A DNA stretch of 64,000 nucleotides, from contig RSEE01000143.1 in NCBI GenBank assembly GCA_003971905.1, positions 62,001 to 126,000 of the forward strand. The letters are read 5' to 3'. The notes below the pieces were generated by a model. That model saw nothing but the letters and a program-made list of their open reading frames with translations. It had not been told where the DNA came from and ran no database searches. Below are positions 1 through 61,689 of the stretch, piece after piece. The position numbers were made by a program, and so were the translations under genes. Numbering within the stretch: position 1 is the stretch's first letter; each line of letters starts with the position of its first letter. The stretch comes from Moniliella sp. 'wahieum'. Its lineage: Eukaryota.

Positions 1-556
1 AACGAAAGGCGGGGGTGGCGCGAGCGCCAGCCGACGCTTGCCTCGTAGTGACGTACTGATCGATTGATAGGCTAGAGGTCACATTCACAGCCACTAGCGG
101 CTGCGCAGCGACTAACTTGTTCGTGGTGTGTGCAACGTTCAAACGTTCAACGTTCAAATATTCAACCACGCGGGCGGAATTGGTTGGCCCGGGGCGGAGG
201 GCTTGCCGAGGATAGCCAGTAGCCAGCTGCCACGGTTCATGTATTAGAGTGTGGGATTGGTTGGGCTGGTTGGGCCCGTGGATATGTATAGCCTCAACCA
301 TCGTCGGCGCCCAGCCCCTAGTACGCAGCCAGGAACGTCTATGTGCAATGGGAGCAGCGTTGTCAGCCCGCCGTGGTCACCCTGATGCCAGGTTATATGA
401 CAACTCGATGTACTCAGTATACAGGAAGCACCGAGGCACTCGGCTCTGACATCGTGCTGAACCGAGAACGGAGAACCGAGTGCAGATGTAAATTTCCGAT
501 ATGGGCATCGACATCGTCCCTCGAGATCAAGCAAGAGAGAGACAATATGTGTATGG

Positions 557-559
<3 letters not shown>

Positions 560-597
<38 letters not shown>
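560..597. repeat. (GA)n microsatellite
   Basis: Perfect GA dinucleotide run seen directly. Confidence 0.95.
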
Positions 598-599
<2 letters not shown>

Positions 600-799
600 T
601 GGCATGCGTGCGCAGGACCCTCTAGCTTAGTAGCGTAGTAGCTTAGCGGCGGGAGAGAATACAATGGCCCAATGACACCATGACCCAATGGCAATGGCCG
701 ATCTCGAGTCACACTAGTCATCGTCATCGTCACCATTACATTGGAATCGGTGTCGGTGGTTGAACATCATTGCAGTTGCATTTGCATCGGTGTCGGTAG

Positions 800-3578: not shown

Positions 3579-3597
3579 GGCGTGTGGGGGGGAAGAC

Positions 3598-3663: not shown

Positions 3664-4244
3664 TAATGCGCCCTGAGGCCTGATGGGATGGACTGCCAGG
3701 TGGATGCAGGGGAGCAGAGTGGTGCGGACAGAGTGAGTGACCCGTGGCAGGCCAGCCGCCCCGCCACCGTGGCCCGACCGGCGCCCCACGTCACCCACCG
3801 CCGCCCCTCACCCGTCGCGCCACGCGCGGCGACACTTGAACGTTCAGATTCCGTCTCAGCTCCCGCCGCCGAGCGGCCCAGACGTGGATAAGCACGGGCG
3901 GCTGACATGTGACATGTGCCATCACAAGCCCCATGTCACATCCCCTTCCCATCACCACTGCACGTGACTGGGGCTAAGCAGGTAGGTGAACGTTGAAATG
4001 TTCGCGCGGCGTTTGTCAGCCAGGCGAGGCGCCCAGCAGGCTGCGGCGCCGTGCGGGCGCAAGCGCGGGGGGCGCACACTGGCGCGGGTGCGTGGGCCAT
4101 GGGCGCCTGGCCTGCGGGAGGCTGTGGCCGCAGTCTGGCCGCCTGGCCGTCTGCTGTCCCTTGGAGCGCCTGCAGACGGACGGCTGCCGACACCTCGCTG
4201 GGGCCTTCCTCCATCCGCTCCCTGCCCTGAGCTGCTCCCGCGCC

Positions 4245-9430: not shown

Positions 9431-9619
9431 ACAATCCTGGAGGCTCAGCGGATGCCAGCCCTGTTCAGGGCAAAAGAGCCCTTAACTCCCTCATCTTGTT
9501 CACTTACATGTTACACCTCCTCAACAGTCTCCTCATCTGAGATCTGCAACCATTCAAGTGTTTCGACGTTCACCGCCGTTTCCAGCGTATAATTCAAGCT
9601 GTCGCACACGACGCCCCCT

Positions 9620-9990
9620 TCATGTAGCTCTTGGCTCAGGTCCTGTAAGTACGATGGATGACATTTTTGGTCGTCATGCGTGCCTGTGCAGCTTACTCAT
9701 CCGCCTTGTAGTTCCTGACATCCAATACGATGCGCGCAATGCCTTACGGTGTTAGGCAACCGGTATTGGTGATGGTCGTCTTTTGCAACCAAGCCTCGAC
9801 GTTTATGGTCGAGATGCTTGAGACGGACCGCATTGTGCAGCAGAGCACCACGCGCTCCTTAGTCCTCCTCGACGAACTGGGACGAGGCACATCGACATTT
9901 AATGGCCAAACAATTGCCTATGCCGCACTCCCCCATCTGCTCATGCGTATCCGCTGTGCATCGGATTCTTTCTGACCCACTACTCTTAGT
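9620..9990 (+). pseudogene. MSH6: Degenerate MutS domain V (ATPase) remnant, MSH6-type
   Basis: [45 protein letters not shown] (Walker B region), then a frameshift to IGFFLTHYS and a stop. No intact Walker A (GxxxxGKST) is found upstream. Confidence 0.8.
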
Positions 9991-10994
9991 TCTCTCGATC
10001 GCGCCCTTGCCTCTTCCCCATTAATGCGGCCTAGAAAGCTCAACAGGTCGCACGCTCCCTTTCCTGCTTGCACTTGGGAAGCCTGGCGGATTTTGCTTAC
10101 TTAGTTGCCCTGGCACAGCACGCCCCTCACGCAGATGCAGATGCAAACTCATACTCACACCCACACGCAGAAGGTGTACTACATGCACGTCATGCACCCA
10201 CACGTCGTCCCGAAGAGAAGCACGGGTCACAATCGTTCCGCGATAACCTGCTGCTGTCCCAACTGGAGGTGCTAAGGGAAGCGGCTCGATAAGTGCGGTA
10301 CCCAACAAACAATTGGCTCCTTAGTAGTGTAACCCTCCCCCCGCCTCTCCGCCTCCACCAGCCTCTAACCCGCCGATACGCATTTCGTTTCCTGTTCCTG
10401 TTCTTGTTCCTGTTCCTGTTCTGTTTCTTCTATACGTTAGCTTTGCTGTTGTTTCTGCCCCTCTCTGCTGTTGCGGCCCATTCCATCACCAATCACCAGC
10501 CACTACTAGTCACCACTTACCGGAGCTATCGTTATACCAATTACCAGTCACCCGTCACCGTGACGAGGGAACCTCTGATCGGATTTGAAGGGCAAAGATA
10601 GGCGGATGCAGTCGATAAAGGTTAATAACGGGCGTGTTGGAATGGGATATCATGAGAAGAAAGTGGGAGGTCGGGGGGGGGGGGGGGGGGGTAACGTGTA
10701 ATAGCTGATGAATTTAGTCCTTTGTCTAATTGATTGGAAATAAGGACAGTCCGGGGGAGGAACGAGTGGAGCGAGGGCAAATGGTGGTAGCAAAACTAGT
10801 TGGTCGAAGCGGGTTGAACGTTGAAGCCCCAAAGAGTCATTAATTCGTCCGTTTCTCATCCGTCTTTGATCATTTCGGGCGTCGTCTAAAAACAAAGGTG
10901 TTGGAAGGGATAAAGAGTAAGGTACTTAAGTACCAACAAGTGCCGTCGTGGCAGTCAGGCCTCGACCCGCTCATTGTCACGTCACGGTGACGCC

Positions 10995-15458: not shown

Positions 15459-15490
<32 letters not shown>

Positions 15491-15494: not shown

Positions 15495-16436
15495 CGCAAA
15501 CTGCGCTGGGCCGAATAGCCAAAGCTCGTTTAGCAGGCTGCCAGAGCGCGTCAGGAGGCCTGTCGGCGGAGCGCCCAAAGTACAACACTGCAGCCACATG
15601 CAATGGGCCAGTGTGCAAGCACCGCGCGTGCATCGCTGCCCCCGTGCCCGTCCCCCCTGCCCCTGCAGCCTGGGCGCATGGCTGCCCCTGGCTCTCACAC
15701 CTCCCACCCATCATGCATCACCCTGCCCCCCACACGTGCGCACTGCGGCTGGTATATGTGGGCACACGCGGCAGCTAGAGCCCGCACCCCCTCCAGATTC
15801 CCTCCTACTCGCACCATCCTTTGCCGCCGCAACCGCTCCAGTGGGTAAGGTCACGGTGACCGTTGGCCACATCAGACCTACCATACAGCCACGCCCGTGC
15901 CATGCCTTGTCTATTAACACCCAACACGGCATCCCATCCAGCGAGGCTGGTCCTCTCACGAGCTCTTTCTCGCTGTTGTTGTTCTTCCAAAATCCTCCCT
16001 CCGTGTGCGTATATCTGGGCTCGACGGTCCCCAGCCCAGTCTCAGCTAGTAGCCATATACCCCAAAATGAGACCACCATTCCGTTGGACTATACGCGCAG
16101 GTTTACATTCTTCAAGTTGATGTGCAATGCTGTGAATATTGAATCCAGATGGCACTCTGAAACGTCATTGTAGCTTGAAGCTTGAAGCTTGAATCTTGAT
16201 ATGGTCTCGCGGTCGAATCTGTTGCTAGTTTTATACACGCCGACGCAGCCAATAAGGGCCCATTTACCCCACATTATTCTCTCCCGAGGGTGAAACCCAA
16301 GGCGGGAGTGAAATTTTATTGGGGCACACGCCCCACCTTCCGGCAAAGCAACCAACATTGCTGCCGGCCGAGCTGGCTCGAATAGCCTTCGCAGCCCAAC
16401 CATATCTCTCGCATCCCCCGTTCCTCGTCCGCCAGC

Positions 16437-17492: not shown

Positions 17493-18334
17493 TTGATCTC
17501 CAGAACAAACAGTCTACTTATACGCTACACACACTGGCTTGTTATGACTTACATATGCGTCTCCTCTGGCAGGTGTAGCATGAAGCTACTAATGCACAGC
17601 CCATGCTCTCATGGGCGCTGACGCTGTATTAGTCGGGCGCAGCAGGAAGGGTTCTGCCTAAGACTGGACGCAATGGGCACAAAGCATCGTACCGATGAGC
17701 CCATGCGACCATGGCGGGCCGCGGATGGTATCCGCAGCATGGATAAGGTGTCGACTGGCTCTCTCTCGCTAGCCTCACAGGGCTGACGCGTGTTGCGCTG
17801 AGATATCTACAACATGCGGGGCTCAGCGTCCGAAGATAACCGGAGCGCCCCGTAACAGAGAGGGAGCGTGGTGGGGAGCAGTAGGGTCAGGCGCACGGAT
17901 TACCGACTGATGAGACTGGGTGCCATTGGGAGGATCCTCGCCGATCGATCATCGATCATCGATCAGGGAGGGAGGTGGATCAGGTGGATCAGGGGGTGGA
18001 TCACACTGAGAACGATGGATGACTCGGGGATCTGTTAGGCAGGCAACCTCCGAGGTCCGGAGGCTCAGGCCGGAGGAGGGCCGTGCGAGGAACCCTAACC
18101 CTACCCGCTCCCACCGTGGGGCTGGCTGCCGAGTTGAGATCTGACCGGTGACTCATCTGCCGCGCCGGATTCCGATCAGTTAAAGACCCTGCCTCCTCTT
18201 GCGCATTGCCTCCTGTATCCCTCTCCTCTGCACCACATCCTGCACTCTCCTCCCTCCTTCAGCAGGACCCAACAAGAAGCGCCTCGGGCTGCTAGAAGAG
18301 GACTGGTGCTGATTCGGAATCCCCTGCTACCACA

Positions 18335-19312: not shown

Positions 19313-19996
19313 AGTTCCCCCCGCTGGAGGGAAGAGTGGGTTGGGGGGTAAGTCAGTATGATTGCTGGTGGCGCATGGCCACGTTGCACACCTCTTCCCA
19401 AGACCAACAGGAAACCTTGGCGAGGTTCGAAGATCCTCCCGAGATACTTGGTAAACTGTCGAACCAGAAGGCCGGCGGCATGTTACGCATCCCTCTCTTT
19501 CCCTTTTCAAAGTGAACACGCCTGGCGTTGCATACATCCCATCCCATCGTTCTCATAGTGTAGTAGTTTGCCTGTAACTGTGGGTTGTGCCATGTGTTGG
19601 GCGCAAGCACGGGCCACTTTCATATACACACAGCGCATCTTCTGCTTCTTGGCGCTAGCAGCCCTCCCCCCCCTTCTCTCTTTCTCCACCCTTGCGCTCG
19701 GGAAGTTTGTCTCCTCACCGCCGCCGCGCTCTTCGCTCCACCTGTAACCTCGTTCCTGCGTCTTGCTACCGTTGCTCCCGCTGAACTCGCCCTCGAGCAT
19801 ATAGAGATTGCCCCCAACAGTGGTCTGGGTAATGCCCACGGCGCAACTGGACTAGGGTTCAAGGATTGTTGGAAAGCAAATGAAGCACATCTGGTAACCC
19901 TACTGCGCCACTTGTGCTGCTAATAAATCTTGAAGCTTGAAGCCTTACAGTTCAAGCCGGGAAGCTGCGCATGCTGTGCCCCCGCCTTCGACGGCG

Positions 19997-44900: not shown

Positions 44901-45004
44901 CGCGTGCGCCTTGCCGGACCTGCTTGTCTCTGGCCGCCCTCTTTTTTGCTTTGTCGCTGGAAGCGTGCCTTCTCCTACTCTAGGCCCACCAAGCAGGGGG
45001 CACC

Positions 45005-45568
45005 ATGCCCCTGCCCTCCGCACCACCCTACGACACACCTTCCTACTGGCAAGCGCGTCTCGCTTCGGACCTCGCTTTGGGTCGGCGCTTCGAATGGCTC
45101 GGGACAGGGGTGGAGACACTCTTGCCTCCGCTACGCGCGTACCTCGCTGCCATCCTGTCTGGGGACGAGGAGGACGCCCCCCCACCCTGTTGCCTCAACA
45201 TTGGCTGTGGTTCTTCGGCGTTGCACCTGCGCGTGGCGCAGGTATGGGAAGAGCACCGTCTCTCCCCCCCACCATCTGGGTACGCACCTATTCCTCCTCC
45301 TTTTTTGCTCGTGCTTGTGCATTTTGGCTTTGGCTTTGGCTTGCTTTCTCTCCCACGTCGGAACCCGAGGCTGACCCAGCCAGAACCTGGACTACGTAGA
45401 GGCGGCGCTACGTGCGGCCGAAGGGGTAGGCCACGGTGTACTGTGCGACCTGCTGGACTGGCGCAGCGTAGGACGTACCGATCTGGTAGGCAAGGTGGAC
45501 GTGGTACTGGACAAGTGCACCTCGGACTCACTCGCCACGGGGCCCGATGTACGTTTCGAAAAGACGAA

Positions 45569-45603
<35 letters not shown>

Positions 45604-46249
45604 TCGACGGCACAACGTCACGGATGACCCAAGTCGGTGCCCGTTGTTGCCATGTGGATGGAAGTTGCGCCCAAGTACAGAGACGGAGACGGAAACGTTC
45701 CAGGACACGATGCGGGAGCTGGAAGGGTGCGATACGGATGAAAGTGTTTCGACGGGCTCGCACAGTCCCAGTCCAGCGCTCATGGCTTCGAGCGGGTGCG
45801 ACAGGAGTGGCAGGGGTGGCCCAGCGGGCTCGGTGCTGTCCAAGGGAAACCGGAGCAGGGAGGAGAGTTCCCGCGGGTCCAGTCCGGGGCACGCTTCCGA
45901 CACTACCGACGCTGAGGAAGATGCCAATGCCGGCGCTGAGGCAAATTCCGAAGATGAGAGATGCCGATGCTGATACCAATGGCGATGCCGATGCTGATGC
46001 CGATGCCGATGCCGATGGTGAGCCGGCCTTCTGTTGCGAAAAGGAGTGTACCGTTTGGATCCGGTCACGCTGCTTGCTTTCCATCTTGCTGCGCTTGTGC
46101 GCCCCGGAGGTGTCTGGCTCCTGCTGAGTTTTTCCGAAGCGCGATGTACGTTTCTTGCGCAGGTGCAAACCTTTTGGAGGCTAGAGGAGCAACGAGCGTT
46201 TTCCCTGGATGCTTCTACGGTGTACCGATTTATCCTCCGGCGCATCTAG
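45005..46249 (+). CDS. Class I SAM-dependent methyltransferase (EEF1AKMT4/METTL13 N-domain-like)
   Basis: PPYDTPSYWQAR...FEWLG, LNIGCGSSAL, NLDY, DLLDW, DVVLDKCTSDSL and HLAALVRPGGVWLLLSFS. Acidic insertion in the middle; intron and frameshifts present. Confidence 0.75.
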
Positions 46250-47679
46250 TATGTTTTTATCGGCTTTTATGCCATGGGCTACGATAGCACACGTCTTTTT
46301 TCGTACACCAACACCCGACCACCACCACTGCCACTGTTGCTACTGCAAGACCGCATCGAGCTCCCAAGCAACCTTTGCACATTCTCTTATTCTTTCTCTT
46401 TCGTCCCATCCTTCTCGCGGCAGCACATCGAATAGATTCAAGTTTGTACTCAACAAAAACACTGATGGCGGGGCTCTCAATCAACTAAATCGAACTTGCA
46501 CTTCATCTTCATTTACTACTAGTATAGTTGCGTGGTGTCACCTTAACATTGAGACGTGCACATGACAGTGTGCGTTGAATAGGTTGAATCTCCACAGCCT
46601 ATATTACGATTCAATCGTACTATAGTCATACAAAGTGTTTGACCTTATTTGGCTCCCTAGGCAGGCGTTCGAGTATTTCTCTTCCCTCCAGGCTTGGAAG
46701 TTGGATTCGATCAGCGCCACACAAAGTGAGAGTGCCACATGATCTGCATGACCATCCGGTGGGAACCAGCGGCAGCCAGGAGTGCGCGACTAACGCGCTG
46801 GGGTGCACACACAGAAACCTGGCACTACAAATGGACTAGGATCATCTCGCCACTACATCTAGTCACTATCTCGCCACCAGTCAAAACCACACGGAACGTG
46901 GGGGGGGAAAGGGCAATATAGGGCACCAAGGGGGATGAGGAGCACAGTGAACTAGGCTAGTGATGGCGGGCAAGGACAGGGGGACGAGTGGACCGAGTTG
47001 GGGGGGGAGCGGGGGGGGGGGGGGGGGGTAAGGAGAAAAGTGAGGGGAAAAGCGAGGAGAAAAGTAAGGGGAAAAAGTGAGGAGAAAAAGTGAGGAGAAA
47101 AGCAAGGAGAGAAGCGAGAACGATATGGCGAGGAAAGGAATCCATATAGGTGTGTGTGTTGTAAGAGTGGTAGTGGACTATACGTGGCTGAGGGGATGGG
47201 GGATGTGTAGGAGGGCCCGATTTGGGGGCCCCGGGTAAAAAACAGGTGAAACAGGCGGGGAAGCGGGGGAGTGGGGAAGAGAAGCAGGTCTGGGGAAAGA
47301 GCGGCAGACGAGAAAACAGTAGGAATTGAAAGGTGAACTGAACTGGAACGGGGAAAGAGAATGAGAAGGAGGAGACGGAGAAGAAGAAGAAGAAGAAGAA
47401 GGAAGAGAAGGGAAACGAAAACGAAAACGAAAGCGAAAGAGGAAGGGGAAAAGGAGCATTTGGCAAAGACAGACAAAGACAAGAATTGGATAGTGGCCAG
47501 GTGTCACGCAAGATTATATGATGCAAGCAACAGACCCAGGAAGGAGGAGGGAGGAACCCCCCCCCCCTCCCATCCCAACCCAACCCATTCTTCCTGAACG
47601 GGGTGAGGATCGGTGGACCTCGTAAGGTTGCCGAGGAGTAACCGAACGGGACGCCGACATGCGGCTCAGGCAGTAGCGG

Positions 47680-50600
47680 GGCTCAGGGTCGCACCGTTGC
47701 AGCAAGGCCGTGTTAGCAGAACTTGTACGCCCACACGTTACCGCGCATGCGACGAATATCAAGCGAGAGAGACCGGGTAAATTTTGCAAGCGCGTAATCT
47801 CGACCGAGAAGCGAACTTCTTGACCATTGTCTACACTCGCTTGTCCGTACACGGGGCCGGGGGGCTTTTCTTGCCGAGCGAAGGCGAGGGCATCACACGT
47901 CCATTCGTCAAAGGCAGGCGTGAGGGCACGTTCCAAATCGGCCTGGGTGGGCGGGAAGACACTCGTGCGCAAATTGGTGCCCCATGCACCCAGTCCCCCG
48001 CGGCCACCGCGCCGAGCCGAAGACACTCCAACTTGAACTCTTCCTCGCGTCGCCAGACCAAAATCGATGCCCATACTGGCGAGCGCCGCGCGCACTCGCA
48101 TCAGCATTCCTGAGGTGGGAGGGAGGAGAGCGCACGCTGGTCCACCGCACCAACGTGTGGTACCGCAACATGGTATCGCTAAATGCTTAGGAACCGCCTT
48201 GGCGACCGGAACCGGGGCGGGACCACCTTGTGGACCGGGTGGTCGTCCGAGAAGTAAGTTCCGTGTCCCGGCTCGCTTCCGAATGAGTGCCACTGGTAGC
48301 CCGATCGAAGGTTGGACCGACGCCTGCCGCGTCTCCGGCGCACCCACCCACTTGTCGGAAGCAGGTTCACTTGCTTGCTCAGCGGGCAGCTCGGCGAGCG
48401 AGCGGCCACGGAACAGCCCATGGACCCGCCTGGCCGCATGGCTGGAATTTCGATCCCGTAGGGTCAGGCGTGTGCGGGGGCGAGCTGGAGACAGGAGTGG
48501 TGGCAGCGGCGGTGGGGGTAGGTTGAACCGACCGGGTGGTCGCCCGACGTTCTTTTTCTGCCTTGCGTGTGGGCAAGAGGAGAGCGTTTTCTCCGTCGCT
48601 GAGCGGCGGGAATTTCGGGCGGTGCCAGTCCTCCCCCACCCCAGTGGGCAGGGTCGAGGGGGCGCGGAGACAGGACCGAGAAAAGACAGAATCATACGGT
48701 GGGCCGCACCGATTCCTTTTATTGGAACGAGGCGAGCTGCTTGGTTTGGGGTTGTCCAGCTAGATGGCCGGCGCATCGGATGGTTGCTTGAGATCCAAGG
48801 AGCGGACGTTCCCGACGCGGTGCGGGGGGAGCTGGCAGGCTGGACTGTGGCCGGGCGGACACGCGGCGTGCCCTTGGGGGTTTCAGGTGCTACCACAACA
48901 GGGGTGGGGGCGGGGTGCATCCAGGTCTGCGCGCGCGGGTGTGTAGTGGGCACAGTGACATGTTCCGAAGCTGACTCACGGTGCGACGCGAAGCAGAAGC
49001 GGCCTCAGGTCCGGCAACGGGCGTCGCGGTGCCTTGGGAGTCAGATCGTGGCCGCCGGTGTGGGGCGATTGGGAATCGTCTGTCGAGACGAGGAGCGCGG
49101 AGACGAGTAGGTGAGAAGTGGACCGATTGGTCTGCCACCATCTCTGCGGGTTCGGCAGTGGCGTGTTGGACGCGGAGATGGGGCTGAAAATCGGCACGTG
49201 CGGCGGGGGGAGAGGCTGAGAGGGGGGCTCTGCTTTTCGGTATCAGCATCAGGTCCATGGCCTCTGGCTGGGCAAGAAGGGGCCGAGACTGTAGGCTTTT
49301 GTAAGGGCTCAGGCACGACCGTTTTTGGGGGGAAGGACGGCGGGAGGGAACGACGCGGATCCGAACGGGGTTGTTTACTGTACTCCACCTGGACCGTATG
49401 ACGGTTTGCGTGGGCAGCAGTCCCACTGTTCAGGTGCAAAGTCTGCTGGTGCACTGGGAGTAGGGACTTGAGGCCGAACAGTGTGCCGGTTGCTTGTGTC
49501 TGTCTCTTGGGTGTCCGTGACAGTTTCGCTGCGTGCAGGGATAGGATAGGATAGCTGGTCTGACCGATAGAGGAGGGGGGTTGCGGGAATTGGGCCTGCG
49601 CTTGAAGTTGTGTTGGAGGACCATCTGCTGGCGATAGAGTTGCCGTTTACGCGTCTGCTGTTCTGACGCAGCACGTTCAAGGTCTTCGACGCTGAACGAA
49701 AAGAGATCACGGTAGTCGGCGAGCCAAGGGTGGCTCATTACCTCATTCATGTCCGCGCGACGGCGTGGATCAGGGACGAGCATGCGACTGAGCAGATCGC
49801 AAGGCAAACGAGAGATGTACTCGGGGAAGGTGAGGGGGGTGGCAAGAATGTAGTGATAGAGTTGATTGATGTTATCCGAATCGGGGTTGGCAGGATCGTC
49901 GTCAAAGGGAAGGTAGCCGGCGAGCATCGCATAGAGAATTACGCCGCAAGACCAGATGTCAGCCGCTTCACCATTGTAAAGTCCATCTTGCACTACGAGC
50001 TCGGGAGCAGCAGCATAGCACGGAGAGCCACATGAAGTAGCCATCAAATCGTCGACCCGGTCACCAAAGTGTTGGCAAACCCAAAATCGGTGATGATGAC
50101 GTTGCGATTGCGGTCGAGGAGCAAGTTTTCGAGCTTAAGGTCGCGGTGCACGATGCGCTTTTGGTGGAGATAATGAACACCGCTGATAGCTGGGCAAACA
50201 TGCGACAGGCATCCTTCTCACGAAGGTACTTGGGGCGAGAATGTGGTCGAAGAGCTCACCCCCTTGAGGTATGTCAGCAAACGCTCGTCTCAACGGTTGT
50301 TGCCTACAGGGCGAAGGAATACATACCCGAGGCATACTCAAGCACAATGCCAATGTAACGGTCCGACTCGACGACCTCATAGAGGCGCACAATGTTGGGG
50401 TGTCGGACGGAGCGGAGCACCTGGATCTCACGATCAATCTTGGACGGCCGCTGGGAACTGTGCTCCGAGCTGAGCGAGCGGCTAGCAGCAATGCTAGGGA
50501 CACGGTCACGACGGATCAGTTTGACGGCCACTTCTTCTCCGAAACTCTTGTGAACACCGAGCTTGACTTTGCCAAATTCGCCTTCACCCAAGGTCTGGAG

Positions 50601-51165
50601 AAGAAGGTAGTTGCCGAACTGGACCTGCGGGCGGTTGGGGGCCGAGCCAAAGTATTGCATGGCAGCCGAACTGGTGATGGGGATGCCGCTCGTGATCAGC
50701 GCGGTGGCAGTACGCGGATCAATGCCTTGGGCGCCGAGGGATGCGACGGCGGCGGCAATCAGGTTGTGGGGTGATTGCGGCGGCGGCGGCGACACAGTTC
50801 CCGAGGGGGCCGAGATGAGCACGGGCTGGGCGGTGGCGCGGTGTGGGTGGGATTGGGCGGCAGCGGCAGGGCTGGTGGCAGTGGTGGTGGTAGGGGTAGG
50901 GGTGGGCCGAGTGGCGGCTCCGGGGGTGGCCCCAGGGGGGGCACCACGGGGGCGCCATGGCGGGAACGGATGCGGACGCCGACGGGGGGGCACCGGGGCA
51001 GGTGAGAGCGCAGGAGTGGTGCGTGGCGGGCGGGCGCGGGTGCGGGTGCAGGGGGGGAGCGAGTGCTGGGGCGGGGGCGGGGGCCGGCAGGAGCGCGTCG
51101 GGCGGGAAGGAGGGGGCCATGACAGGAGCCGACATGGGCAGGGAGCTGGCCATGGCGGCGGCCAT
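47680..51165 (-). CDS. KIN4: CAMK-group Ser/Thr kinase, Kin4/Ppk1-like, with a C-terminal KA1-like region; frameshifted
   Basis: [70 protein letters not shown] and [17 protein letters not shown] (diagnostic of the family). C-terminal [17 protein letters not shown]. Both ends are approximate. Confidence 0.88.
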
Positions 51166-52004
51166 TGCGAGCTGAGCGCTGAGAGAGGCGGTGTGGTGGT
51201 GGTGGTGCGATGCGGGAGGACGAGTGTGTGCTGCTGCGTTCGTTTCGCAGCGCAGCGCCTCTGGCGCCAACCCCTCGCATGCTCCTGCATCAGCATCCGC
51301 GCCCCAGCCCAGCACGCCGCCGCCCTGGCACCCACCTCCCCGATGGGCATGTGTGACAGCATGCAGCTCACATTCAGCACGCGTCACACATCACACATCA
51401 CCATGCACTCTTCCGCGTCCGCCCTCGAGTGCTGCGTTACGCAGGCCAGCTCACACGTCACGCGGGCCCGCAGCACGCGGCTGTGCGTGTTGCGGGGCTG
51501 CCGCAGCAGCCGCCGTGTGAGCGCACCGCACACAATGGCCGTGGGATCTGGGACGCCGTGCGCCCGCGTGGGGCTGGGCAGCCCAGCGCCCGGCCGCAGC
51601 TGCCGCCACCCACCGCCCCCCCCCCGCGCGGGGGCAGTGTGGGTGGGCACGCATCCCACACCGCCATGGCACTCCAGAACTCGGTTCAGATTGCCTTGGC
51701 ACGCCCCTGCCCTCGCCCATGCACCCCGTGCATGCCGTCCCATGCCGTCCCATGCCTCCGGTCCCCCCGCGCTCGCCCAGCCAGGGTCCCCGTCTCTCTT
51801 CGCGGCCCTGCAGGCACCAGGGCGCACCTGCTGCTCTGGCAACGCTTACCTACCCCTGGGTGCAAGCGCCAACCGGGTAATCCTTCTCAGGCCCCGCGCG
51901 TCCTCTCGGTGACACACCACAGCATGTCCCAGTCTCATGCAAGGCATGCGTGACGCGTGACACTGCACTCCGTGATGGCATCAATGAAAGAATGACTGAC
52001 GCAT

Positions 52005-52062
52005 GATACATGATGCATGATGCACATACATCACATGTCACATGTCACATGTCACATGTCAC
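52005..52062. repeat. Period-7 arrays TGATGCA and (TCACATG)4
   Basis: Seen directly upstream of the kinase gene. Confidence 0.9.
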
Positions 52063-53292
52063 ACCCACTGCCCTCTTCGCTACCACTTCGTTCTGCTGCC
52101 TTCTTTACCTTGTGTGTGTTGTGTAAACAAGTGGACGCGTGTCGGCAACGTCCCACGTCCCGTGTCCCGACATGTGTCCAAAGTACCCTGTTGCCACCCT
52201 CCTTCACCGGGTCCATCGCTCCCTCCTTACGCACTTAAGCCTTAGGCCAGGCCTTATCACCACTTACACTCGCTACCTCAGGCCTCGGCCTCACCCCCTG
52301 TCCAGCAGCAAGCACCCTCGCTTGTCCGCCCGCCCGTATATCCCCCCTGCAGCTTCGCTTTCACCAGCAGATGACCTTGTGATTAATTTGTTTCTTTCGC
52401 TGCACCGCCCACACCGCAAACCACGTGTCCCGAACGCCTGCTCACGCCTTGCTTACTCTCGTTGCCGCCACCCTGCATCCTCATAATGCACTCAGTCTCT
52501 ACCTTATATGCATGCGTTCATGTTCCCAGGTTCACATCATGTTCTTCTCACATCTCACCATCTCACCATCCCACCATCTCACCTTTCAAGACGTGACAGG
52601 ACGTGACTGCCGTGATGATCGATGGTCGATGGTCGATGAGCGCGCTCAGGCTGAGCATTGAGCGAGTGGCAACGCCTCAACCTTCAACAGTTGTTGTGTG
52701 ATGCATGATGAGACGTGGAGTCCTGATGGTCTTCGAGGGTGATGCAATCGCACAGGTGGTGGTGGTGGTGGTGGCAACCAGCAATGCCTGCAGAGGAACA
52801 TCAAGCAGCGAGTCGCCGTCAGGGGCTAAGCTGCGGAACAAGGGAAAACAGGAGAGAGAAAACAACAGAATTCCTAGGCCTGAAGAGGAACTGAAGGGAC
52901 ATTGGCCAAAGCACGAGCCACCCAGTTCAACATTATGGTAACCCAATAATGCTAGAGTGCGACTTAGGAGCACTCGCGATCCTATGGATCAGCTGCAAAG
53001 CAGCCTTCAGACAACAGGCGTGAAGGCAACGCGGTGAGCCACAAGTCTTCAAGCAACGTCTGAAGGGAAGGAGACAGGAGAGAGAGAAGGGAGATGAAGC
53101 GAGCAGGGCGTGCGCAGCCTGCGAGCGGAACTCTTCCGCCCGGCTAAGCGAGCGTCACCGATCTCTTAGATCGTGGGTTTTCGTACATGATGCAGATGGT
53201 GCAGGATGGAATGGTCTTAATGGGCTCTTCCAATCTCATTGAATATTGATCGACGATCAGGGAGTTGATCGAGTCGATGCTCCCTGTTTGAC

Positions 53293-54260
53293 TCATGACT
53301 CATCATTGTGCCCATGTTCTTCTGAGTACTCAACTGAGTACTCAGTGCGTACACAGGGATTCGCTCCATGGGTATTAGGAAGGAGCCTGCCAAGCCATTC
53401 CTCGAAACTCTTGGTGGCACCTACCCAGGTCAATGAGGTTGAAAGGGAGCAGACCCTGCTTCTGATAAAATCCCACTGCTGGTAGAACCGCATGCAGGCG
53501 AGGGGAATGCCAGGGTGTCCCGGTTGTGTTATCCCCGATGGCACGTCCTCCAGTTGGGGCGACGTTTTGGCTGCCATCTCCTTGGCCTTGCCCAGTAGCG
53601 CCGCTCCCACCCCGTGCCACGCATCTGCTTATCAACGGCAAATAGGAGCACGACTGGACAAGGAGTACGTGTGGTGAGAGAAGCGACCTTGGCCAGGCCA
53701 CACGAAACAGGAGGGGAGACGTACTAAGCACGCTGTTGGTGGGGAACTGTGTCGCGGTCCATGCGTCCGTAGCGGCAAAAACATCGCTCAGAGCCGTTTC
53801 GTTGAAGCCCTTAGGCGGCGTGCCCCGGGGCGGGAGGAGCGAATCAGCGTGAGCCAGTTGCTTGTGAGCCGCCTTGTCCTCGGCGCGGGGAACAATGCTA
53901 AACACCATCATGCCCACCACGTGAACCGAGCCATCGGGCGCGATCTGCCTGGCACACCATAAGTGGGTGGGGAAAGGGTCGCGGAGCGCGCGCTGTGCCG
54001 AATCAGTGCTCGCCACATAAAAGCGGCGGATCATGCTGGTCCACCATGCACACCGTTCCTCCACCGTGTTCTCCGACGTTGACATCATCGCCGGCGTCAT
54101 GGGCGTTAGGTCTGTTCGAATCGCGACAGTCAGATCACATACTCACGTACTTCTTGTCGTATGGGAGCAGGGGGTACCCACCCTCTGACCAGATCCGGCC
54201 CAGACCAGGGATATCCTGTTCGGTGGCTGGGCCGTATTCAGTACGAACAGTGGCGGACAT
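53293..54260 (-). CDS. Putative GNAT-family acetyltransferase
   Basis: N-terminal YGPATEQDIPGLGRIW, beta-strand-like HVVGMMVF, motif A-like RGTGVGAALL and RFYQQWDF. The exon structure is uncertain. Confidence 0.5.
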
Positions 54261-54784
54261 GATGGTGGCAAGAGACACCGCACGCTCTATGTGGGTCGCA
54301 GTCTTGGCATGAGAGGGCCGCCCCGTCGTTCCGCCTGCCATTCATTGTTTGTGGCCTGGCTTAATAGTAGTACTAGAGCAGGCTACGTGAGTGTGCCGAT
54401 CCGGGCCCCCAAGTGCCCCCCTTCGAAACTGGACGCTTGGCTCGTTGAAGCTTGAGCTTGAGCCTCGGATCCAGCGATCAGATCGATCAGCCAGCGGCGG
54501 TAGACTCTCCCTCACCATTGGCTGGCGGTCTGGTGACACGTGACGCGTGACGCAAGGCCTGTTCAACTTTCAATGTTCGCCTCTCAAGTTTCAAAACGCC
54601 TGTCCAACTCATTAAACCCTCCCATTCGGCTCAAACGTCAAACCTTAATGGGCGTGCTTAATGACGGGCGGAATTCGGGAGGCGGAGACAGCGCCCAGCT
54701 GGCCGCCTTGCTTTTTTCTCCAAGCTCGAGAACAGCCATTTACTTGGGGAAGCACTCCTGCTGCCCTCTCTCGAGTGGCCAACC

Positions 54785-57072
54785 ATGCCGCTGCTTCGGA
54801 AACGAGGTGCGTCTCCCCTCCCTTTCCTACCTTGCATCTTTCGGCCGGGAGCACTGACCCCCCACTCATCCGCCAGACGGACGACGAGAACGCTTCTCCC
54901 CTCGCAAGCTGGAGCGGCGCCTCGAGCAGTTGGGCGCCACCCAACTGCCGCCGGCCCCAGTGGTGGCCACGCTGCAAGCAGCCGTGTACGAAGGCATGTC
55001 CACGAAGGAACTGGACAATGTGCTGTGCCGTGCCTTGGCCAGCCACGCGCTTGTGCACCCCGAGTACGAGCGGATCGCAGGCCAGGTGGCCCTGGCTGCG
55101 CTCTATCGCGATACGGAGGTGGCGTTCAGCCGGGTGGCTCGGCAGGCCCGCCCTGAGCTGGTACGATGGGTGGACATGTACGGGCCGGAGCTCGATGCAA
55201 TTGTGCAGCACACCAGGGATACTCGGCTGGGGTATGTGGCGGTGCAAACGCTCTGGCCGCACCTGTTGCAGGTTCAGGGACAGGTGGTGAGCGGCCCCAA
55301 CATTTTTTTCTCCGTTGTGCTTTGGCCGTTCCGCATACCAGTCTCAATGAGGTACAAGAGAGGTACGATCTCCTTTCTCTTGGCATCCTCCTCCCCCCCG
55401 GCTTGACTGTGTGGTCCAGGGACAACAACACGCTCGCAATGGAAGATGACTCGCTGGAGGGTATCTTCAACACAGTCAAGGCCGCCGCGCTCACAGTCAA
55501 TGAGGGGGCAGGCTGAGTGTCTCCAACATCCGTTCCGAGGGCACATCGATCGCTGGTACCGGGGGGCGATCCAGTGGGGTGGTGCCTATGCTGCGTGTGT
55601 AATGAGGCCGTGCGGAGCAACAATGGAACGATGCGGGTATATCTCGAGCCTTGGCATGCCGACCTGCTCTCCTTTCTCGATTTAGCTAAAGCGAACGGGA
55701 AAGAGGAGCGGCGGGCGCGATGGTTGGAATATGGACTGTGGGTGCCAGACCTGTTTATGAAACGGGTCGAACAAGACTTGCCGTGGTCCTTGATGAGTGC
55801 CGACGAGTGTCCCGGGTTGCAGACGGCGGTGGGCGCTGCGTTCGAGCAACTTTACGTCCAATACGAACAGGCCGGACGGCACGACGCACCTCCCCGCACG
55901 GGACTTGTGGAATGCCATTCTCACTGCCCAACTGGAGACGGGAGGACCGGCTCTACTCTACAAGGACGCGGCCAACAGCAAGTCCAATGAACGCAATCTG
56001 GGCACTGTTCTCGGTAGCACCTTCCATACGGACGGGACACAGGTCGCCTCTCCCTCGGCAGCGCAGGTGAGGGGGAGCATTCTCTCTCTTACTTTATTGA
56101 GGGGGCCGAGATCAACCACACAAGCTGCACCAACGAACAAAGGAGGTGGTATCATTCCTTGCTGCCATGGGCGGGCGTGCTCTCGGCATCTCCCTCTGCG
56201 GGTTGCTGGACACTTTCCATCTTCTTGGCGTGGCCTACGATTCGGTTGAGGCGCGTCGTATCAACCGTGAAGTGTTTGAGACGGCGTACATGCCGCGATG
56301 GAGCGGTCCATGGAGCTGGCCCGGCAGCATGGACCCTATAGCGGATGGGAAGGCAGTCCCATCTCCCACGGCCAGTTCCAGTTCGACCTGTGGCCGCACG
56401 CTATGCTATCGGGACGGTACGACTGGGAGCAACTGCGCACCCAGGTCATGCAGACAGGGGTGCGGCACGCTCTTCTCCTAGCTCAAGGGGGTAGCGCCGC
56501 GATAGATCCTGCCGAGTCCAATGTGCTGTGCCACACTCTCAGCAATGGGCAACAAGTGGAGTATGTGCGACCGAGTCTGGTGCGTGCGTTGATCGCTCTC
56601 GATCTGTGGAACGAGGGGATACGAGAACGGATTCTCCTCCGGCGGGAGCATTGCCTCTCTCACCGAAGTCCCAGCCTGGATCAAAGCGGTGTACAGGACG
56701 GGGTGGGAGATGAGGCAGCGTGCAGTCTTGGACCAGGCGATTGAGCGGGCTCCCTTTTTGTGCCAATCCCAAACTATGGCGCTCCGCTTGGCGCACCCGA
56801 CGCGCGGGCAAGTGACGAGCATGCACTTTTACGGCTGGAAGCACGGTTTGAAAACAGGGTGTACCCAACTGCTTACTTCCCCGCCCTGGCGCGGACGCAG
56901 CCGGGGCCACCCATTTACTACCCTGTCGACCCGCTCGCCCTCGGTTCGCTCCCGCTCCTCCTCTTGCTCCTCATCGCGTGCATCGGCTTCAACGTATAAT
57001 ACCACCGCTCTGCCCGAAACAGACGCAGCTCAGTGCTCGTTTGACGAGGGTTGCCTCATGTGTGGGGGCTAA
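54785..57072 (+). CDS. Ribonucleotide reductase large-subunit (class Ia R1) homologue lacking catalytic residues
   Basis: Intron 54807-54876 yields MPLLRKRDGRRE (ATP cone). Then VYEGMSTKELDN, HPEYERIAG, ERPQH, DDSLEGIF, YLEPWHAD, GLWVPDLFMKRVE, ETGGPALLYKDAANSKSN, GSPISHGQFQFDLW, TSMHFYGWKHGLKTG and terminal CLMCGG. Several frameshifts. Confidence 0.9.
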
Positions 57073-58274
57073 CTGCCTCTTCCGATACCTGAGCATGGAC
57101 TCATCCACCTCACTACTTTTTGTTCTCATTCGCGTTCGCTCCTCGTGCTTGTACAGATACCATTGCATGTATCTGTGTCTCCATCGATGGAGCTAGGCGG
57201 CCGAGAGTGAAATGGGCGACATAACGTAGGTGTATTACGAGGGGGGGGGCTCAGTTTCCTGCCCCGGGCAAAGGCGGACGACTCGCATTCGTCAGGTTCT
57301 GCGAAAGTACTAGTATGCATCATGATTACATCCTGCTTTTCCCCCTCGTTTGGCTGAAAGATTTGGCTGATGGCTCGCGTAGCCCGTCTTCAGCGGTAAG
57401 TACTCCTCTCGTCAACCTGAAAGTCATGACTGTCTCGCAAGAGGAACCCCTTGTTCGTCTCTGCCTTATTGATATTTCCCCCAATGAAGACTCGCCTCTT
57501 TCCCCTGAGGCTCACCTCCACCATGGCCAGTATTACGCTCGGCGCTGCTGGGCTCGAAGGGGATTGGTGGGTCCCTCGCTCGCTCCGGATGTTATCTCCT
57601 CGCCGTGGCTGGAACACTTCTTTTGCCTATGCCCCCTTTCGGCTGCAACGAGGATGAATACGGCCCTGTCGCCAAAGAGAGCAGAATCCAGCTCTTACCT
57701 ACCTAACGACCACCTACTCGCTCCCCTGGCCTTTCGCCCTTGGACCCTGCCTGAGCGAGACCCTCCCACCCACACCCGGTGGATCCGTGGGCACCGCCCG
57801 AGCTATTTCTTGCTCCCCCAACACATCCGACGACAAGGCATGCAGTATTTTGAAAATGAGCTTGGCAAGACAAAAGGGCAAAGTGAAAGGGAAGACAAGG
57901 AAGCTTAAAGGTTAAACAGTTGTGATAAGGCCAAGGAGGCGTTAGTAGAAGAGCAATGGGCAGTGCTTGGCGCGATTGAGACAGAGGCGTGGAAGCTCAA
58001 GTTCATGAAGCAAGTTCCATGCATCCCAAATCCCGAGCGGGCACCGATCACAGCTGATGGGCTGGAAGCAGGGGGAATCAAGTAGAAAGGAATGGGAACA
58101 GCAATGCACACACTTGCTCCCACGCAACCTGCTTGAGGCACCTCTTTGGTTATCTTGGCACAGTTCCGCCAGGCTAGGGCACAGCACCGCATGTTGGTGA
58201 CCGTGGTGGCGGGGGTGGGGGGGAACAGGGAGAGGGGGAGAGCGCGCAAGGGAGGGGGTAGCCAAATAAGGCAA

Positions 58275-60212
58275 TCATCTCCTCAGCAGAAGGGCGGGGA
58301 ATACAATGGGTATGAAAGAGATCGACCACGATAGTGGGGTGAAAAGAAGACTTTTGCTGGCGCTTTCAGAGGCCAGGCGTTCATAGTGCGCCCGTTGGCG
58401 AGGAAATTTGTTCTTGCTCCAGTTGAAAACGTAGATGGAAGACTTTTCAAAGCCATTCAGGGCGTACTTGGCAAACAGGGCCTCGTGTACGCGCTCTGTG
58501 GGACGCAGGATGAAGTCCAACATGATGTTGGCCGTGGAGAGCAGTTCGGATTCAGAGTAGCCCGAGTAATGCACCATGTTGGGGTCCCAGGTCGGAGTGG
58601 TTTCAATCACCTCTCTTGCCAACCAGAACGCGGCAGCGGCAAGGAGTGAAGGCGGATGGCCGAGAAGGCGCATGTCCATGATGCTGATCTCCACCCTACA
58701 TTGTGTCAGCGGCAACGAATGGCCGGGCAAAAAAATTATTAGGAGGGCACGACAGATACTTGGCAATGTTGCGAGTCTGGAGATCATACTCGTCTGCTTT
58801 GGAAATGCGACGGAGAAAATTCAAGGGGTTGGGGTAGGACAGATCAAAGTTAAGGGTGCGGAGAATGTAGCGCTCAGCGCCCAGAATGTCTTGCTCAGAT
58901 ACAGCGGCCATGTAGGCATAGTTTTCTACCGAAGGGCAAACTACCTCCTCGTACTTGGCCGCGAGGAAGGGGCTGCGGCGGCAAGCAGCTGGAGGCGATC
59001 AAGGGATACAAAGCGGACGCTGAGCATGCGATCCATCACGTTAACCGCTAAGAAAGCGTTTCGGACATGAGACGGAATTTGTGTTGTACACGGATCAGCC
59101 AGTTGATGGTCTTACACCGGTGTGCCCATGTCATATCCTCTTGCAGGTCAATGTAGTGCGGGTTGGGCAGTGTCTGGAGCTGGACACCCATCGGTCAGTC
59201 TGCCGTCTGCGTGCACGACGTGCCACAGCAAGTCCAACAAAGGACGAAGCGCGTACCTCGATCCTGCGCATGTAGGCGAAAATGTCCTGGACATACTCAT
59301 ACGCCATCGTCGGGTCCCTTCATCTTCCAGGTCCAGATCGGTCCAGCCGGCGTCCTTGGGGGGCAAGTCAGGGCGGCTGGGCGACTGAGGGACGTATGGG
59401 GGCAGGGGGGGCGAGGACAGGGCGGGGGCAAGAGCAGGCGCAGGAACAGGAGAAGGGGCAGGGTCAGGGTCAGGGTCAGGGTAACGAGCGCGCTTCGTCG
59501 GGCGGCTGGGGGCAGTGGTGCAAGAACGCTTTTTTCCGGCGACCTGTGGCTGCGGCGGGGTCGGGGCGTCGGGGTCGGCATTAGCCGAGCCGGGGTGGAG
59601 CGGCAGCCGTTCGCGTGCGACGGCAGCCGACGCGTTTCCAACGCTGGCGGTGGGCCCATGGGGGTCGGGGAGCCGCCGGGGGGCAGGGCCAGAGGGGCGA
59701 GCAACGTCATGGCACCCCCAGCTCCCGGTGGTGGCAGCGCGCCAGCTGGGGTGGGCGCCAGGCAGGCAGAACTTATGGCCTGGCTGCCGAGCGGCGGCCA
59801 CACACGCCCTGTGCTGAGTGGGCTGTCATCGCACCGTGCACTGGCCTTGTGCCTGTGCGGCCCCACCACCACCAGCCTGGCCGGAGACTGCTCCTGGGCC
59901 TGTGTCCCGCCGGCAGGCACCACAGCGCACTTGCACTGCGACGCAGCCGGCCCCGGATCCCGGGTTTTTTGGATGGCGTTTGCGCTTCTTTGGCCAGCAC
60001 CCTCCACCGAGGAAGTCTGACGAAAACACTCTCAACTTTGGGGACGGGAAGCAAAGTGGCTGTCCTAGTCCCGGCCACTCGTTACCCTGCTCCTTAGCTT
60101 TTCTTCAGCGTGCTGAAGCTCTGCTCTCTCCCACAGCTCTCACATCTCACAGCTCAGCTTGAGCGCTCACAGCTCTGACAGCTCTCAGCGCGCGCACCTG
60201 TGGCGGACCCAT
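58275..60212 (-). CDS. B-type (G2/M, Clb1/Cdc13-like) cyclin; frameshifted
   Basis: GWTDLDLEDEG, KFRLMSETLFLAVNVMDR, LAAKYEEVVCPSV, AERYILRTLNFDLSYPNPLNFLRRISKADEYDLQTRNIAKYL and HPPSLLAAAAFWLAR. The start is inferred from ATG GGT CCG CCA CAG followed by a GTGCGC donor. Confidence 0.88.
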
Positions 60213-60512
60213 GCCTTTTCCCCATTACGCACCACAGACGGCCACATGATGCATCTTGGAGATTCGCCAACCCGCACACGGAAGAGGTGTTCAAGATTAG
60301 ACAGGCGTCTTTCCCCTGTACCGCTGTGCCGCTAAGAATGTTTCTTCGGATGTGATGATGTACAGCAGTAAAAGAAGTCATCGACAGCAGACATTATTTT
60401 CGCTCATGCGCTCATGTACATGGTACCAATTGAAAGTCATGAGAATGTCACACGTTCAAACGTGTTTTTGCCTCTCAAGGTCGAATGATGCATCAACATC
60501 AGTAGCCGTCTT

Positions 60513-60637
60513 GCTACATGGCTAATCGAAATTTCTGGTGCACAATCTTGTGGGCCTTGCCCACCTTGAATTTCGTACATAGTCCTCACATATCTATCCG
60601 GAACCTTGTTACCGGCAATTTCGATTAGCTATGTAGC
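60513..60637. repeat. Inverted repeat with 27-bp arms and a 71-bp spacer
   Basis: GCTACATGGCTAATCGAAATTTCTGGT (60513-60539) versus ACCGGCAATTTCGATTAGCTATGTAGC (60611-60637): 24 of 27 positions are Watson-Crick complementary. Confidence 0.85.
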
Positions 60638-61689
60638 GACACCAATTGAACACAACAGGAGCCTATAGGTTTTGCTATAGTCTCTCTCGCCATTTCTGGA
60701 TACAATTATCACGGTTTTACAAGAGGCCTGTTGAGGCCACACCTGGAAGGGTCAGCAGTGCGTACAACAAAACTGATGCATACACAGGTAGACTTCGAAG
60801 ATCCAAGAGGGGATCGAGGGAAAATATGATAAACGGCGCCATTTTTTTTGGGATGTATATGGAGGGACCGCCGTACTATTATAGGTCCCAACACAACTGC
60901 TGATGGATATCTGAGGTGGTGGTGCTAGTAAAATGATTCCCACGCCAAACAGGCCAGGGCTGTTGAGAGCAAGGATCGCGGGTGAAAAAGTGAATCACGT
61001 GGTGCCATGCGACAATGTGAGAGGCGTGCGAAGAAGGATAGATGATGGTACCACACTAAAATCCACACTAATATACGCTTTTGAAGCTGGAAGGCTGATG
61101 GCAACTTGATACATGATGCATGATGCATGATGCATGATGATCGATATTGAATTGCAGTTGCCAGCCGCGCGGAAAGATAGACAATCGGTGCACGGGCCAG
61201 CGGTGCGCGGGCGCAAGAGGATGTAGGGTTGAGAGTTAAAGTAGGCGTCAGATGGCTGGCCTGTGCGGCGCTCCGAAGGGTGTTTTTGTATCTTATAAGG
61301 AAACAGTGGTATATCGGCAGGCCGCGTCCCCCCACATGTGTGTTCTGCGGCCCACCAGCCGGTAGAGCCCCTCTTCAGATTGCGCCCGCCTCACTAATCA
61401 TAGCAGGGGGGATGGGCGGGGGGGTGGAGCGATACCAGCTACTGGGAGGCCCACCGAAAGAGGGCGCCCCCGTCCTTGGAAAAGCAGCAGAGGCAACAAG
61501 CTTCTGCGCAGGGACTGTATAGTACTAGTGAAGCTAATGATAGCAGATGAAAAAAGTCTGGCGCCATCTCGATTCCAGGGGCAGTGTTGGCCACCACGCC
61601 TCAAACCCTCATCCGTCTTCTCTCTCCCTTGGCAGAGTCTGCCGTAACGAATCTTTCCTTCCCTCCATCCGCCGTTATTGCTGGGCCCG

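Follow-up and report, generated by a model that had tools for sequence, protein, structure and literature searches.

Palindromic heptamer arrays bounded by T-N-A triplets in the genome of Moniliella sp. 'wahieum', and a hairpin-opening model for their origin

The genome of Moniliella sp. 'wahieum' carries many short intergenic arrays in which a T-N-A triplet recurs every seven bases around a palindromic 4-mer. They were analysed starting from a 64,000-nucleotide stretch of contig RSEE01000143.1 (positions 62,001 to 126,000, hereafter the window; G000:C143:62001-126000 in our numbering of the 69.5 Mb, 223-contig assembly). The pattern is real and genome-wide, and its primary unit is a 12-mer, TNAab·b'a'·TNAab, i.e., a duplicated 5-bp sequence with two inverted, P-like bases in between (the target is written p q T N A a b, and a prime denotes the complement). 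The arrays are most likely neutral mutational scars. Each scar probably began as a 7-bp TNA-centred duplication of which both ends were sealed as hairpins, opened 2 nucleotides (nt) past the tip and joined by end-joining, with slippage extending the arrays afterwards.

About 0.97 Mb of the assembly was examined overall. The best named matches of an XPT1-like protein of the window are in Ustilaginomycotina (58-61% identity). Several genome copies are present in the assembly: contigs C8 and C23 are ~94% identical, and in coding blocks each shares 70-87% identity with the window. Because C23 nearly duplicates C8, it was excluded from the statistics and kept for alignments and for the scan for inverted-repeat elements. 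Indels of 1 bp are frequent, with 1,263 between two homeologs. Genes were called with a small, conservative hidden Markov model trained on Pfam-supported segments of the window; it misses exons, so that the spacer classes are approximate, and it called 17,634 bases of the window as coding.

A first-pass annotation of the window had described palindromic hexamers spaced by a single G or C, and at each of the 33 coordinates checked the motif given there was confirmed in place or a few bases away, although several of the supposed arrays (e.g., 3837, 3987 and 60160) are single 10-mers, T(G/C)A-core-T(G/C)A. The recurrence of T(G/C)A at lag 7 that it proposed is borne out in the window (135 observed against 54±7 in 40 block shuffles preserving 3-mers), as is the excess of palindromic cores, which make up 61 of these 135 against a background of 5.7%. 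Lags 6 (104) and 9 (95) are also raised when coding and non-coding DNA of the whole window are counted together. Non-palindromic cores, said to keep the same spacing, do so above chance, but modestly (74 vs ~51). In four unrelated 50-kb blocks the palindromic cores at lag 7 numbered 56 of 101, 37 of 83, 37 of 79 and 30 of 74.

The true rule is T-N-A, with any N, around any palindromic 4-mer. G and C are indeed the common spacers (164 and 138 of 377 arrays), but the proposed restriction to them was rejected, since N is A in 39 arrays and T in 36. N is identical in both triplets in 288 cases against 61. Over 344 kb, palindromic cores were found in 288 of 578 TNA-N4-TNA words, as opposed to 9 of 247 for ANT, 37 of 617 for CNG and 28 of 728 for GNC, and 100 kb of held-out DNA gave 76 of 138 for TNA against 3 of 54, 7 of 180 and 5 of 223. 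The 377 arrays of at least 12 nt, counted in 624 kb, use 15 of the 16 palindromic cores, and the constraint is therefore complementarity rather than base identity. The core TATA is unused, and just 22 of 377 arrays have one of the other three all-A/T cores. A general quasi-palindrome process at periods 5, 9 or 11 or at other centres was rejected, as were GNA mini-hairpin loops, neither showing any enrichment. Non-templated addition of the second A was rejected as well: 11-mers without that A (47) only slightly outnumber those without the other end (32), so that the TNA is mostly genomic.

The unit of insertion stands out most clearly among maximal matches of exactly 12 nt, of which 33 and 40 were found in the two mirror phases, compared with 0.5 and 0.8 in 4-mer-preserving shuffles (444 kb). 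For 5-mers that recur after a gap of 2 nt, the gap reverse-complements the final two bases of the 5-mer in 510 of the 740 instances with TNA; in the other 15 classes of first and third base the share is 1-11% (both strands, overlaps counted). With d as the length of the direct copy resumed after TNAab b'a', 458 kb of non-coding DNA (both strands) contained 265 cases of d=5 (12.3 expected), 55 of d=6 (3.6) and 28 of d=7 (2.4), and the held-out 100 kb gave 49, 8, 5, 0 and 0 for d=5 to 9; direct copies of d=8 or d=9 were absent from all 558 kb scored. The maximum of 7 bp corresponds to the symmetric window pqTNAab. One C23 allele resembles d=8 and is equally readable as b'a' followed by p' and a 7-mer. 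Perfect palindromes with TNA arms have arms of 5, 6, 7 and 8 bp in 35, 14, 10 and 0 cases, and one 11-bp arm lies inside an array. Beyond the TNA, target preference is weak, the largest bias among 177 reconstructed targets being a 1.6-fold preference for G at q. In 11 of 100 listed period-11 matches the palindromic core is doubled between the two triplets.

Comparison of the homeologs allowed such events to be seen as differences between alleles. The C8/C23 alignment (173 kb) contains 46 indels of 7 nt, against 23 of 6 nt and 20 of 8 nt; among 106 clean indels of 5-10 nt, 16 are this insertion at TNA and 7 are its equivalent at all other triplets together. In several of these the short allele is the bare 5-mer, without any repeat. 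The 216 array alleles divide into 101 that overlap an indel, 80 that are identical in both homeologs and 35 with substitutions, and polymorphism between homeologs that are 94% identical implies that the activity is recent. Three gains could be polarised, one in one of three copies of a ribosomal DNA (rDNA) flank and two among eight copies of a solo-LTR-like (long-terminal-repeat-like) repeat; of the latter, one is a gain of 8 nt for which a direct duplication is another reading, and the other is the window copy at 52699. The three-copy region (C37, C39 and C47) amounts to only ~16 kb including rDNA, with one informative polarity event, the 60 kb upstream being non-homologous; its rDNA-containing segments, ~96% identical, lie at the contig ends (L057-L062) and are flanked by long TNA arrays. 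Slippage must cause deletions as well. In one sequencing run with a word share of 0.07, which covered little of 33001-53000, one contig lacks 7 bases of a non-palindromic array at 35432.

Could the arrays be ordinary slippage microsatellites, or artefacts of assembly? Long arrays do vary by whole units, as heptanucleotide microsatellites do, and the many 1-bp indels of the assembly would fit an artefact. This explanation is nevertheless highly improbable: the repeated unit is a TNA-centred palindrome in 108 of 212 perfect two-copy period-7 arrays and has one of the other three centres in only 4, and the 80 identical alleles speak against it too. Half of the perfect period-7 arrays thus share one symmetry rule and, in contrast to common heptanucleotide microsatellites, start from a repeat-free single 5-mer. 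Among the matches listed from 120 unrelated metagenome loci, which had been chosen for one array, the multi-core grammar was not found, and the inverted spacer occurred in just 30 of 520 TNA cases. Slippage is refuted as the origin of the units and is likely as the cause of their later growth. Loss of mismatch repair was also rejected as a cause; the MSH6-like copy of the window is split, but the genome has 21 MutS_V matches. This gene seems to have been split by an inversion: an N-terminal part and a fragment of MutS_V are separated by 23 kb and face opposite ways (32813-33823, minus strand; 9787-10019, plus strand), and in the C8 homeolog they are together, with a full MutS_V.

The position of the arrays relative to genes bears on whether they serve a function. 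As the annotation had noted, they are scarce in exons: none of the window's 55 direct TNA-palindrome-TNA 10-mers and one of its 44 arrays of at least 12 nt lie in called coding DNA, and in the larger set the figure is one of the 377 (161 kb called coding). This near-absence is attributed to selection against frameshifts, because an insertion of 7 shifts the frame. The annotation's statement that most intergenic regions carry arrays applies mainly to upstream spacers (18 arrays in five hand-picked divergent spacers, 5.9 kb; none in five convergent ones, 4.9 kb). For spacers of up to 2.5 kb, the density per 10 kb is 11.4 arrays where the spacer is divergent, 6.2 where it is tandem and 1.5 where it is convergent, compared with 1.0 in gaps within genes and 0.06 in coding DNA. 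This ranking is unchanged when counted per TNA triplet, and short divergent spacers are ~8-fold denser in arrays than short convergent ones.

This strong upstream bias would suit a regulatory code, in which the arrays are kept as sites of an abundant dimeric factor reading TGA/TCA at 7-bp spacing, as the annotation had suggested. The T and A of the arrays also differ less between homeologs (16 of 499) than the core bases do (55 of 946). However, the rate for the array T and A (0.032) is on a par with that for the T and A of TNA triplets in the flanks (0.037), the cores (0.049-0.075) are conserved no better than the flanks (0.035-0.049), and ascertainment would depress rather than inflate the array rates. 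Indels overlap nearly half of the array alleles, and a protein that reads bases could not demand a self-complementary core, in 15 different sequences, nor that the two N be the same. The binding-factor idea thus found no support and is improbable. The upstream bias remains the sole result favouring a regulatory role, and some arrays may have been co-opted; it is also consistent with cutting in open chromatin.

The hairpin model, which with its predictions was fixed before the junctions were examined, would proceed in four steps. The sequence pqTNAab would be duplicated across a break whose two sides would each close into a blunt hairpin. From known enzymology, a nuclease of the SNM1/Pso2/Artemis type would then open each hairpin 2 nt past the tip, leaving 4-nt 3' overhangs that in top-strand sense read a b b' a' on the left and q' p' p q on the right. 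For Pso2 and Artemis, the opening site lies 2 nt 3' of the hairpin apex (PMC3299998; what is attributed here to papers cited by identifier refers to the accessible portion of each). One match to the SNM1-family domain DRMBL was found in the genome, at E 1.3e-4, which is over the cut-off. The products of the third step are observed, and its chemistry would be as follows: full overlap of the overhangs would give TNAab b'a' TNAab or its mirror, a 12-mer with a net gain of 7 nt; an overlap of 3 or 2 would give a 6- or 7-bp duplication with periods 8 and 9; an overlap of 1 or 0 would retain the inverted bases of both ends, with periods 10 and 11; and opening far from the tip would give 7/6/7 inverted triplications. 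With opening at that point, the right strand would continue from the T itself, and direct ligation would yield the 12-mer without homology. Finally, because the scar recreates the palindromic target b'a'TNAab, repeated events and slippage would lengthen it in 7-nt steps.

Junctions that would retain both ends were counted at period 11. For one core, 100 of the 121 period-11 matches in the genome were listed, and 22 of these sites have the full 7-bp duplication; q'p' follows b'a' in 8, of which 7 are not copies of the upstream sequence, and merging of homeolog-like rows leaves 18 groups, 7 of them with q'p', where chance would give ~1 in 16. For a second core (100 of 306 matches listed, 35 uninformative ones dropped), q'p' was seen by eye in 5 of 15, a count that includes one site already counted and does not separate out upstream copies. 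At 63 distinct period-8 junctions, the three predicted pairings for a 3-nt overlap occur in 28, 30 and 31 (background 0.24, 0.32 and 0.24; p = 3e-4, 6e-3 and 1e-5), and 5 of the 63 show no pairing, where 38% was expected. A one-ended slip predicts just the first of these three pairings.

Such a one-ended route is a mutational rival of the model. The annotation had named quasi-palindrome template switching as a possible source, and the mutational origin has held up; a plain template switch fits less well, in view of the TNA specificity, the exactly two inverted bases, the stop at 7 bp and some two-sided junctions. In the one-ended form, a fold-back or switch on the lagging strand or a flap, the 3' flap b'a'TNA would copy two bases, from itself or from a displaced 5' flap, and be ligated in, as in a miniature small inverted triplication (SIT). 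It would yield the 12-mer directly, and there is precedent: SITs have the form DUP/IN/DUP and arise from unprocessed flaps in rad27 yeast (PMC13334657), and fold-back of flaps is also described in PMC11724301. Moreover, 5 of 9 TNA-centred 7-bp duplications with a 6-nt spacer are mini triplications, vs 2 of 224 at other triplets; stems of two A/T pairs are under-used (21 of 5,934 sites, vs 361 of 17,774 with one G/C); and a single FEN1-like locus was recognised among the XPG_N loci examined, frameshifted in this error-prone assembly. That FEN1/RAD27-like locus (L081, on C14) was the only clear one in the 3 of 6 XPG_N matches examined. The route leaves unexplained, however, why TNA is used exclusively when CNG and GNC would pair better, why two inverted bases and a 7-bp maximum are fixed, and how two-sided junctions and the three-way period-8 pairing arise. 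Nor does the insertion rate track stem energy (Spearman p 0.10-0.16), and three of the four longest arrays fold no better than their own shuffles, the exception being the mixed array at 33974. We therefore hold a one-ended switch to be unlikely.

The published relatives of that route differ likewise. SITs share the DUP/IN/DUP form and the restoration of the original site through slippage loss (Lei et al. 2026, PMC13334657). The units here run from ~5/2/5 to 7/6/7 nt about an axis that always lies 2 nt from TNA, and have a zero-length loop, whereas in SITs the medians are 148/160/148 bp, spacers measure 30 bp and junctions 6 bp; SITs are also variable, and no TNA rule is reported for them in the accessible portion of that paper. 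The four-point short-range template switch (bioRxiv 10.1101/038380) also inserts a local reverse complement in one step and so creates inverted and direct repeats. To make the 12-mer it would need a return point upstream of the departure point, an order reported there as not observed in human-chimp data; the model has no sequence specificity, and a single switch cannot give two-sided junctions.

Several results weigh against the hairpin model itself. The predicted 2-nt overlap pairing was not seen at 31 period-9 junctions (9 and 5 of 31; background 0.27). The period-10 test, on all 92 matches (39 with the duplication, 38 of them retrieved), was weak: of 31 groups, 10 show the inverted bases only, 7 are ambiguous, 5 show the upstream copy only and 9 neither. 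Four of the five L3+R3 sites are equally readable as longer direct copies, and the returns at d=2 (270 vs 206) and d=4 (47 vs 29) need further trimming. Plain 7-bp duplications are not enriched at TNA (43 vs 1,190 at other triplets; 25 vs 55 expected), although end-joining should sometimes produce them. The direction of change is established for three events only, one of them ambiguous. Profile searches of the genome for hAT, MULE, Harbinger, KDZ, P-like, RAG1 and tyrosine recombinase proteins were blank; as 5 of the 8 family searches were without a positive control, they do not establish that these families are absent. No inverted-repeat element with a TNA-centred 7-bp flank was found in ~0.86 Mb of the 69.5 Mb, a small sample, and two CACTA-like transposase remnants (L148 and L149; on C17 and C34) are unrelated to each other and lack clear ends.

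With neither a matching transposase nor a matching element found, our confidence in the hairpin chemistry is divided evenly between two tentative agents, a transposon and a host activity. The former would be a cut-and-paste transposon with a 7-bp, TNA-centred target duplication and flank-hairpin footprints, inserted and excised tens of thousands of times with a liking for open promoter DNA, and now unrecognised or lost. An earlier insertion would account for the 7-bp duplication and its maximum. The arrays also cluster: for 38% another array lies no more than 150 bp away, and the core differs in 116 of these 139 neighbours. The enzymes of hAT, Transib, RAG and MULE elements seal the flanks as hairpins that host nucleases open, and the Muta1 hairpin of 43+43 nt has an even axis like the scars here (PMC5499845); short repeats of Ustilago maydis have likewise been proposed as footprints (PMC4081816). 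Against a transposon, target duplications are 8 bp in hAT and 8-10 bp in MULE (PMC5499845), and extrapolation of the 377 in 624 kb implies ~40,000 scars, yet not one occupied site was encountered. At the C8/C23 homeolog junctions there was no TNA-flanked element with a 7-bp duplication; those homeolog-specific insertions whose ends are clear belong to TG..CA elements, and their 5-bp duplications are not TNA-centred. Two kinds of repeat were rejected as the agent, the CACTA-like loci on C17 and C34, which share no common DNA and have inverted-repeat pairs at chance level, and the 180-bp and 235-bp repeats, which are TG..CA elements with 5-bp duplications. The 180-bp element is at L041:4302-4482 (C8) and missing from C23, with dozens of copies listed at 96-97% identity, and the 235-bp solo-LTR-like repeat is at 52703-52932, with at least 8 copies in the DNA examined, some having the 5-bp duplications.

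Under the host alternative, an enzyme or the repair of a lesion would nick both strands 2 nt 5' of the T of TNA, and the 7-nt 5' stagger would be filled in and its blunt ends sealed (e.g., by attack on a 5'-linked enzyme), giving two hairpins without a mobile element. This would explain the maximum of 7, the symmetry about N and the lack of an element, and it would suit the weak target preference outside TNA and the strong upstream bias. Fill-in without sealing should, however, yield the plain duplications that are not enriched, and no eukaryotic nuclease or topoisomerase is known to us that combines a 7-nt stagger with a preference for TNA; the staggers of Top2 and Spo11 are 4 and 2 nt. Nor did a candidate gene for such an activity come to light. 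The most far-reaching form of this idea, a host-encoded, transposon-free P-nucleotide mutator that makes 7-nt staggered TNA breaks in promoter DNA, passes them through hairpins and V(D)J-style repair and has left ~40,000 arrays, is speculative and on balance doubtful; if true, it would still be generating allelic differences genome-wide.

By analogy, the system behind the scars would work like a P-nucleotide footprint or a V(D)J coding joint. The flank-hairpin footprints of hAT, Transib and MULE/Muta1 elements and the P nucleotides of V(D)J joints likewise show direct duplication with short inverted junction bases; occasional inverted bases from two ends and joins guided by pairing may be further features in common. 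The inverted length of 2 nt seen here matches opening by Pso2 or Artemis, but the duplication here is 7 bp on TNA, unlike the longer ones of hAT and MULE (PMC5499845, PMC3299998). The scars also differ from these footprints in their density of ~6 per 10 kb genome-wide, their great uniformity and the lack of a plain-duplication excess. For Transib and RAG, the target duplication is ~5 bp. Membership among transposon footprints is not established, because no flanked element was found in the DNA sampled. The 10-bp repeats of U. maydis, for which a footprint origin was suggested (PMC4081816), belong to the same subphylum and are short and intergenic, and TNA-core-TNA is also 10 bp, the comparison being by description only. 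No description of the TNA-palindrome insertion rule was found in the literature searched, which was judged at the level of titles and abstracts with few subscription papers and no supplements.

One rigid type of insertion thus makes up about half of the perfect 7-bp tandem repeats in this genome, a birth of microsatellites without a prior repeat by which upstream DNA is continually remodelled. It points to an unrecognised and very active transposon with a 7-bp target, or to a host DNA-cutting activity, and provides tens of thousands of natural junctions at which hairpin opening and end-joining can be studied in a fungus. In motif finders, promoter-biased palindromic arrays of this kind will mimic binding motifs. 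The junction test can be applied to any smut-fungus assembly and could settle the nature of the U. maydis repeats.

Table 1. TNA-bounded arrays and related products in the window, by position
Position	Strand	Feature
134-157		Array, core ACGT, perfect part 142-157, ~0.9 kb downstream of the first gene
3672-3683		12-mer, core GGCC, in a divergent spacer
3837-3846		Inverted-type 10-mer, perfect palindrome, N1 complementary to N2
3903-3918		Array, core CATG
3987-3996		Direct 10-mer, core ACGT
9504-9546		Two 12-mers: TTA/CATG 9504-9515; TGA/GATC 9535-9546
10813-10825		13-mer, core ACGT
15709-15720		12-mer, core TGCA
16133-16144		12-mer, core ATAT
16172-16193		Array, core AGCT, ~3 units
17944-17965		Array, core TCGA
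19929-19943		Array, core AGCT, upstream of a TRM1-like gene
22302-22323		Two abutting arrays, cores CGCG and CATG
33974-34017		Mixed array, core ACGT, TCA/TGA switches, 14-bp perfect palindrome around 33999
34127-34140		14-mer, core CCGG
34393-34443		Three arrays, cores ACGT, TTAA and TCGA
34516-34529	+	6-bp duplication and two inverted bases, period 8
34579-34599		Array, core TGCA
34801-34817		Array, core CCGG
37499-37521		Period-8 product (37499-37512) merging into a period-7 array, core TCGA
37808-37822		Array, TAA triplets, core ACGT
38217-38294		Three arrays, core TGCA
42028-42075		Two arrays, cores GTAC and CATG
42446-42466		Period-9 then period-7 units, core CCGG
42611-42979		Three arrays, TTA/TAA triplets: 42611-42622, 42925-42937, 42964-42979
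43450-43463		14-mer, core GATC
43590-43605	+	Full 7-bp duplication and two inverted bases, period 9
43759-43794		Period-8 product (43759-43772), inverted 10-mer, period-9 product (43779-43794)
44143-44553		Three arrays: GTAC 44143-44154; CCGG 44386-44400; GATC 44542-44553
51171-51183		13-mer, core GCGC
51948-52063		Cluster: CGCG 51948-51961; TGCA 52009-52024; CATG 52031-52063 (longest array of the window)
52699-52710		12-mer overlapping the end of the 235-bp solo-LTR-like repeat; other 7 copies without the extra 7 bases
53238-53249		12-mer, core ATAT
53323-53346		Two inverted-type palindromes, core GTAC, arms of 5 and 7 bp
54446-54553		10-mer AGCT (54446) and array CGCG (54539-54553), in a divergent spacer
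58869-58880		Sole array of at least 12 nt within called coding DNA, cyclin-like gene
60160-60169		Inverted-type 10-mer, core GCGC
61112-61139		Array, core TGCA, four units

Two further genes of the window were noted in passing. A gene like that for the large subunit of ribonucleotide reductase (54800-57100) has its Pfam matches spread over five short frames and is either a broken copy or an assembly error. A small glycine-rich protein with GGYGGNQ repeats is encoded at 35513-36064, and related copies are found on C7, on C40 and elsewhere on C143.

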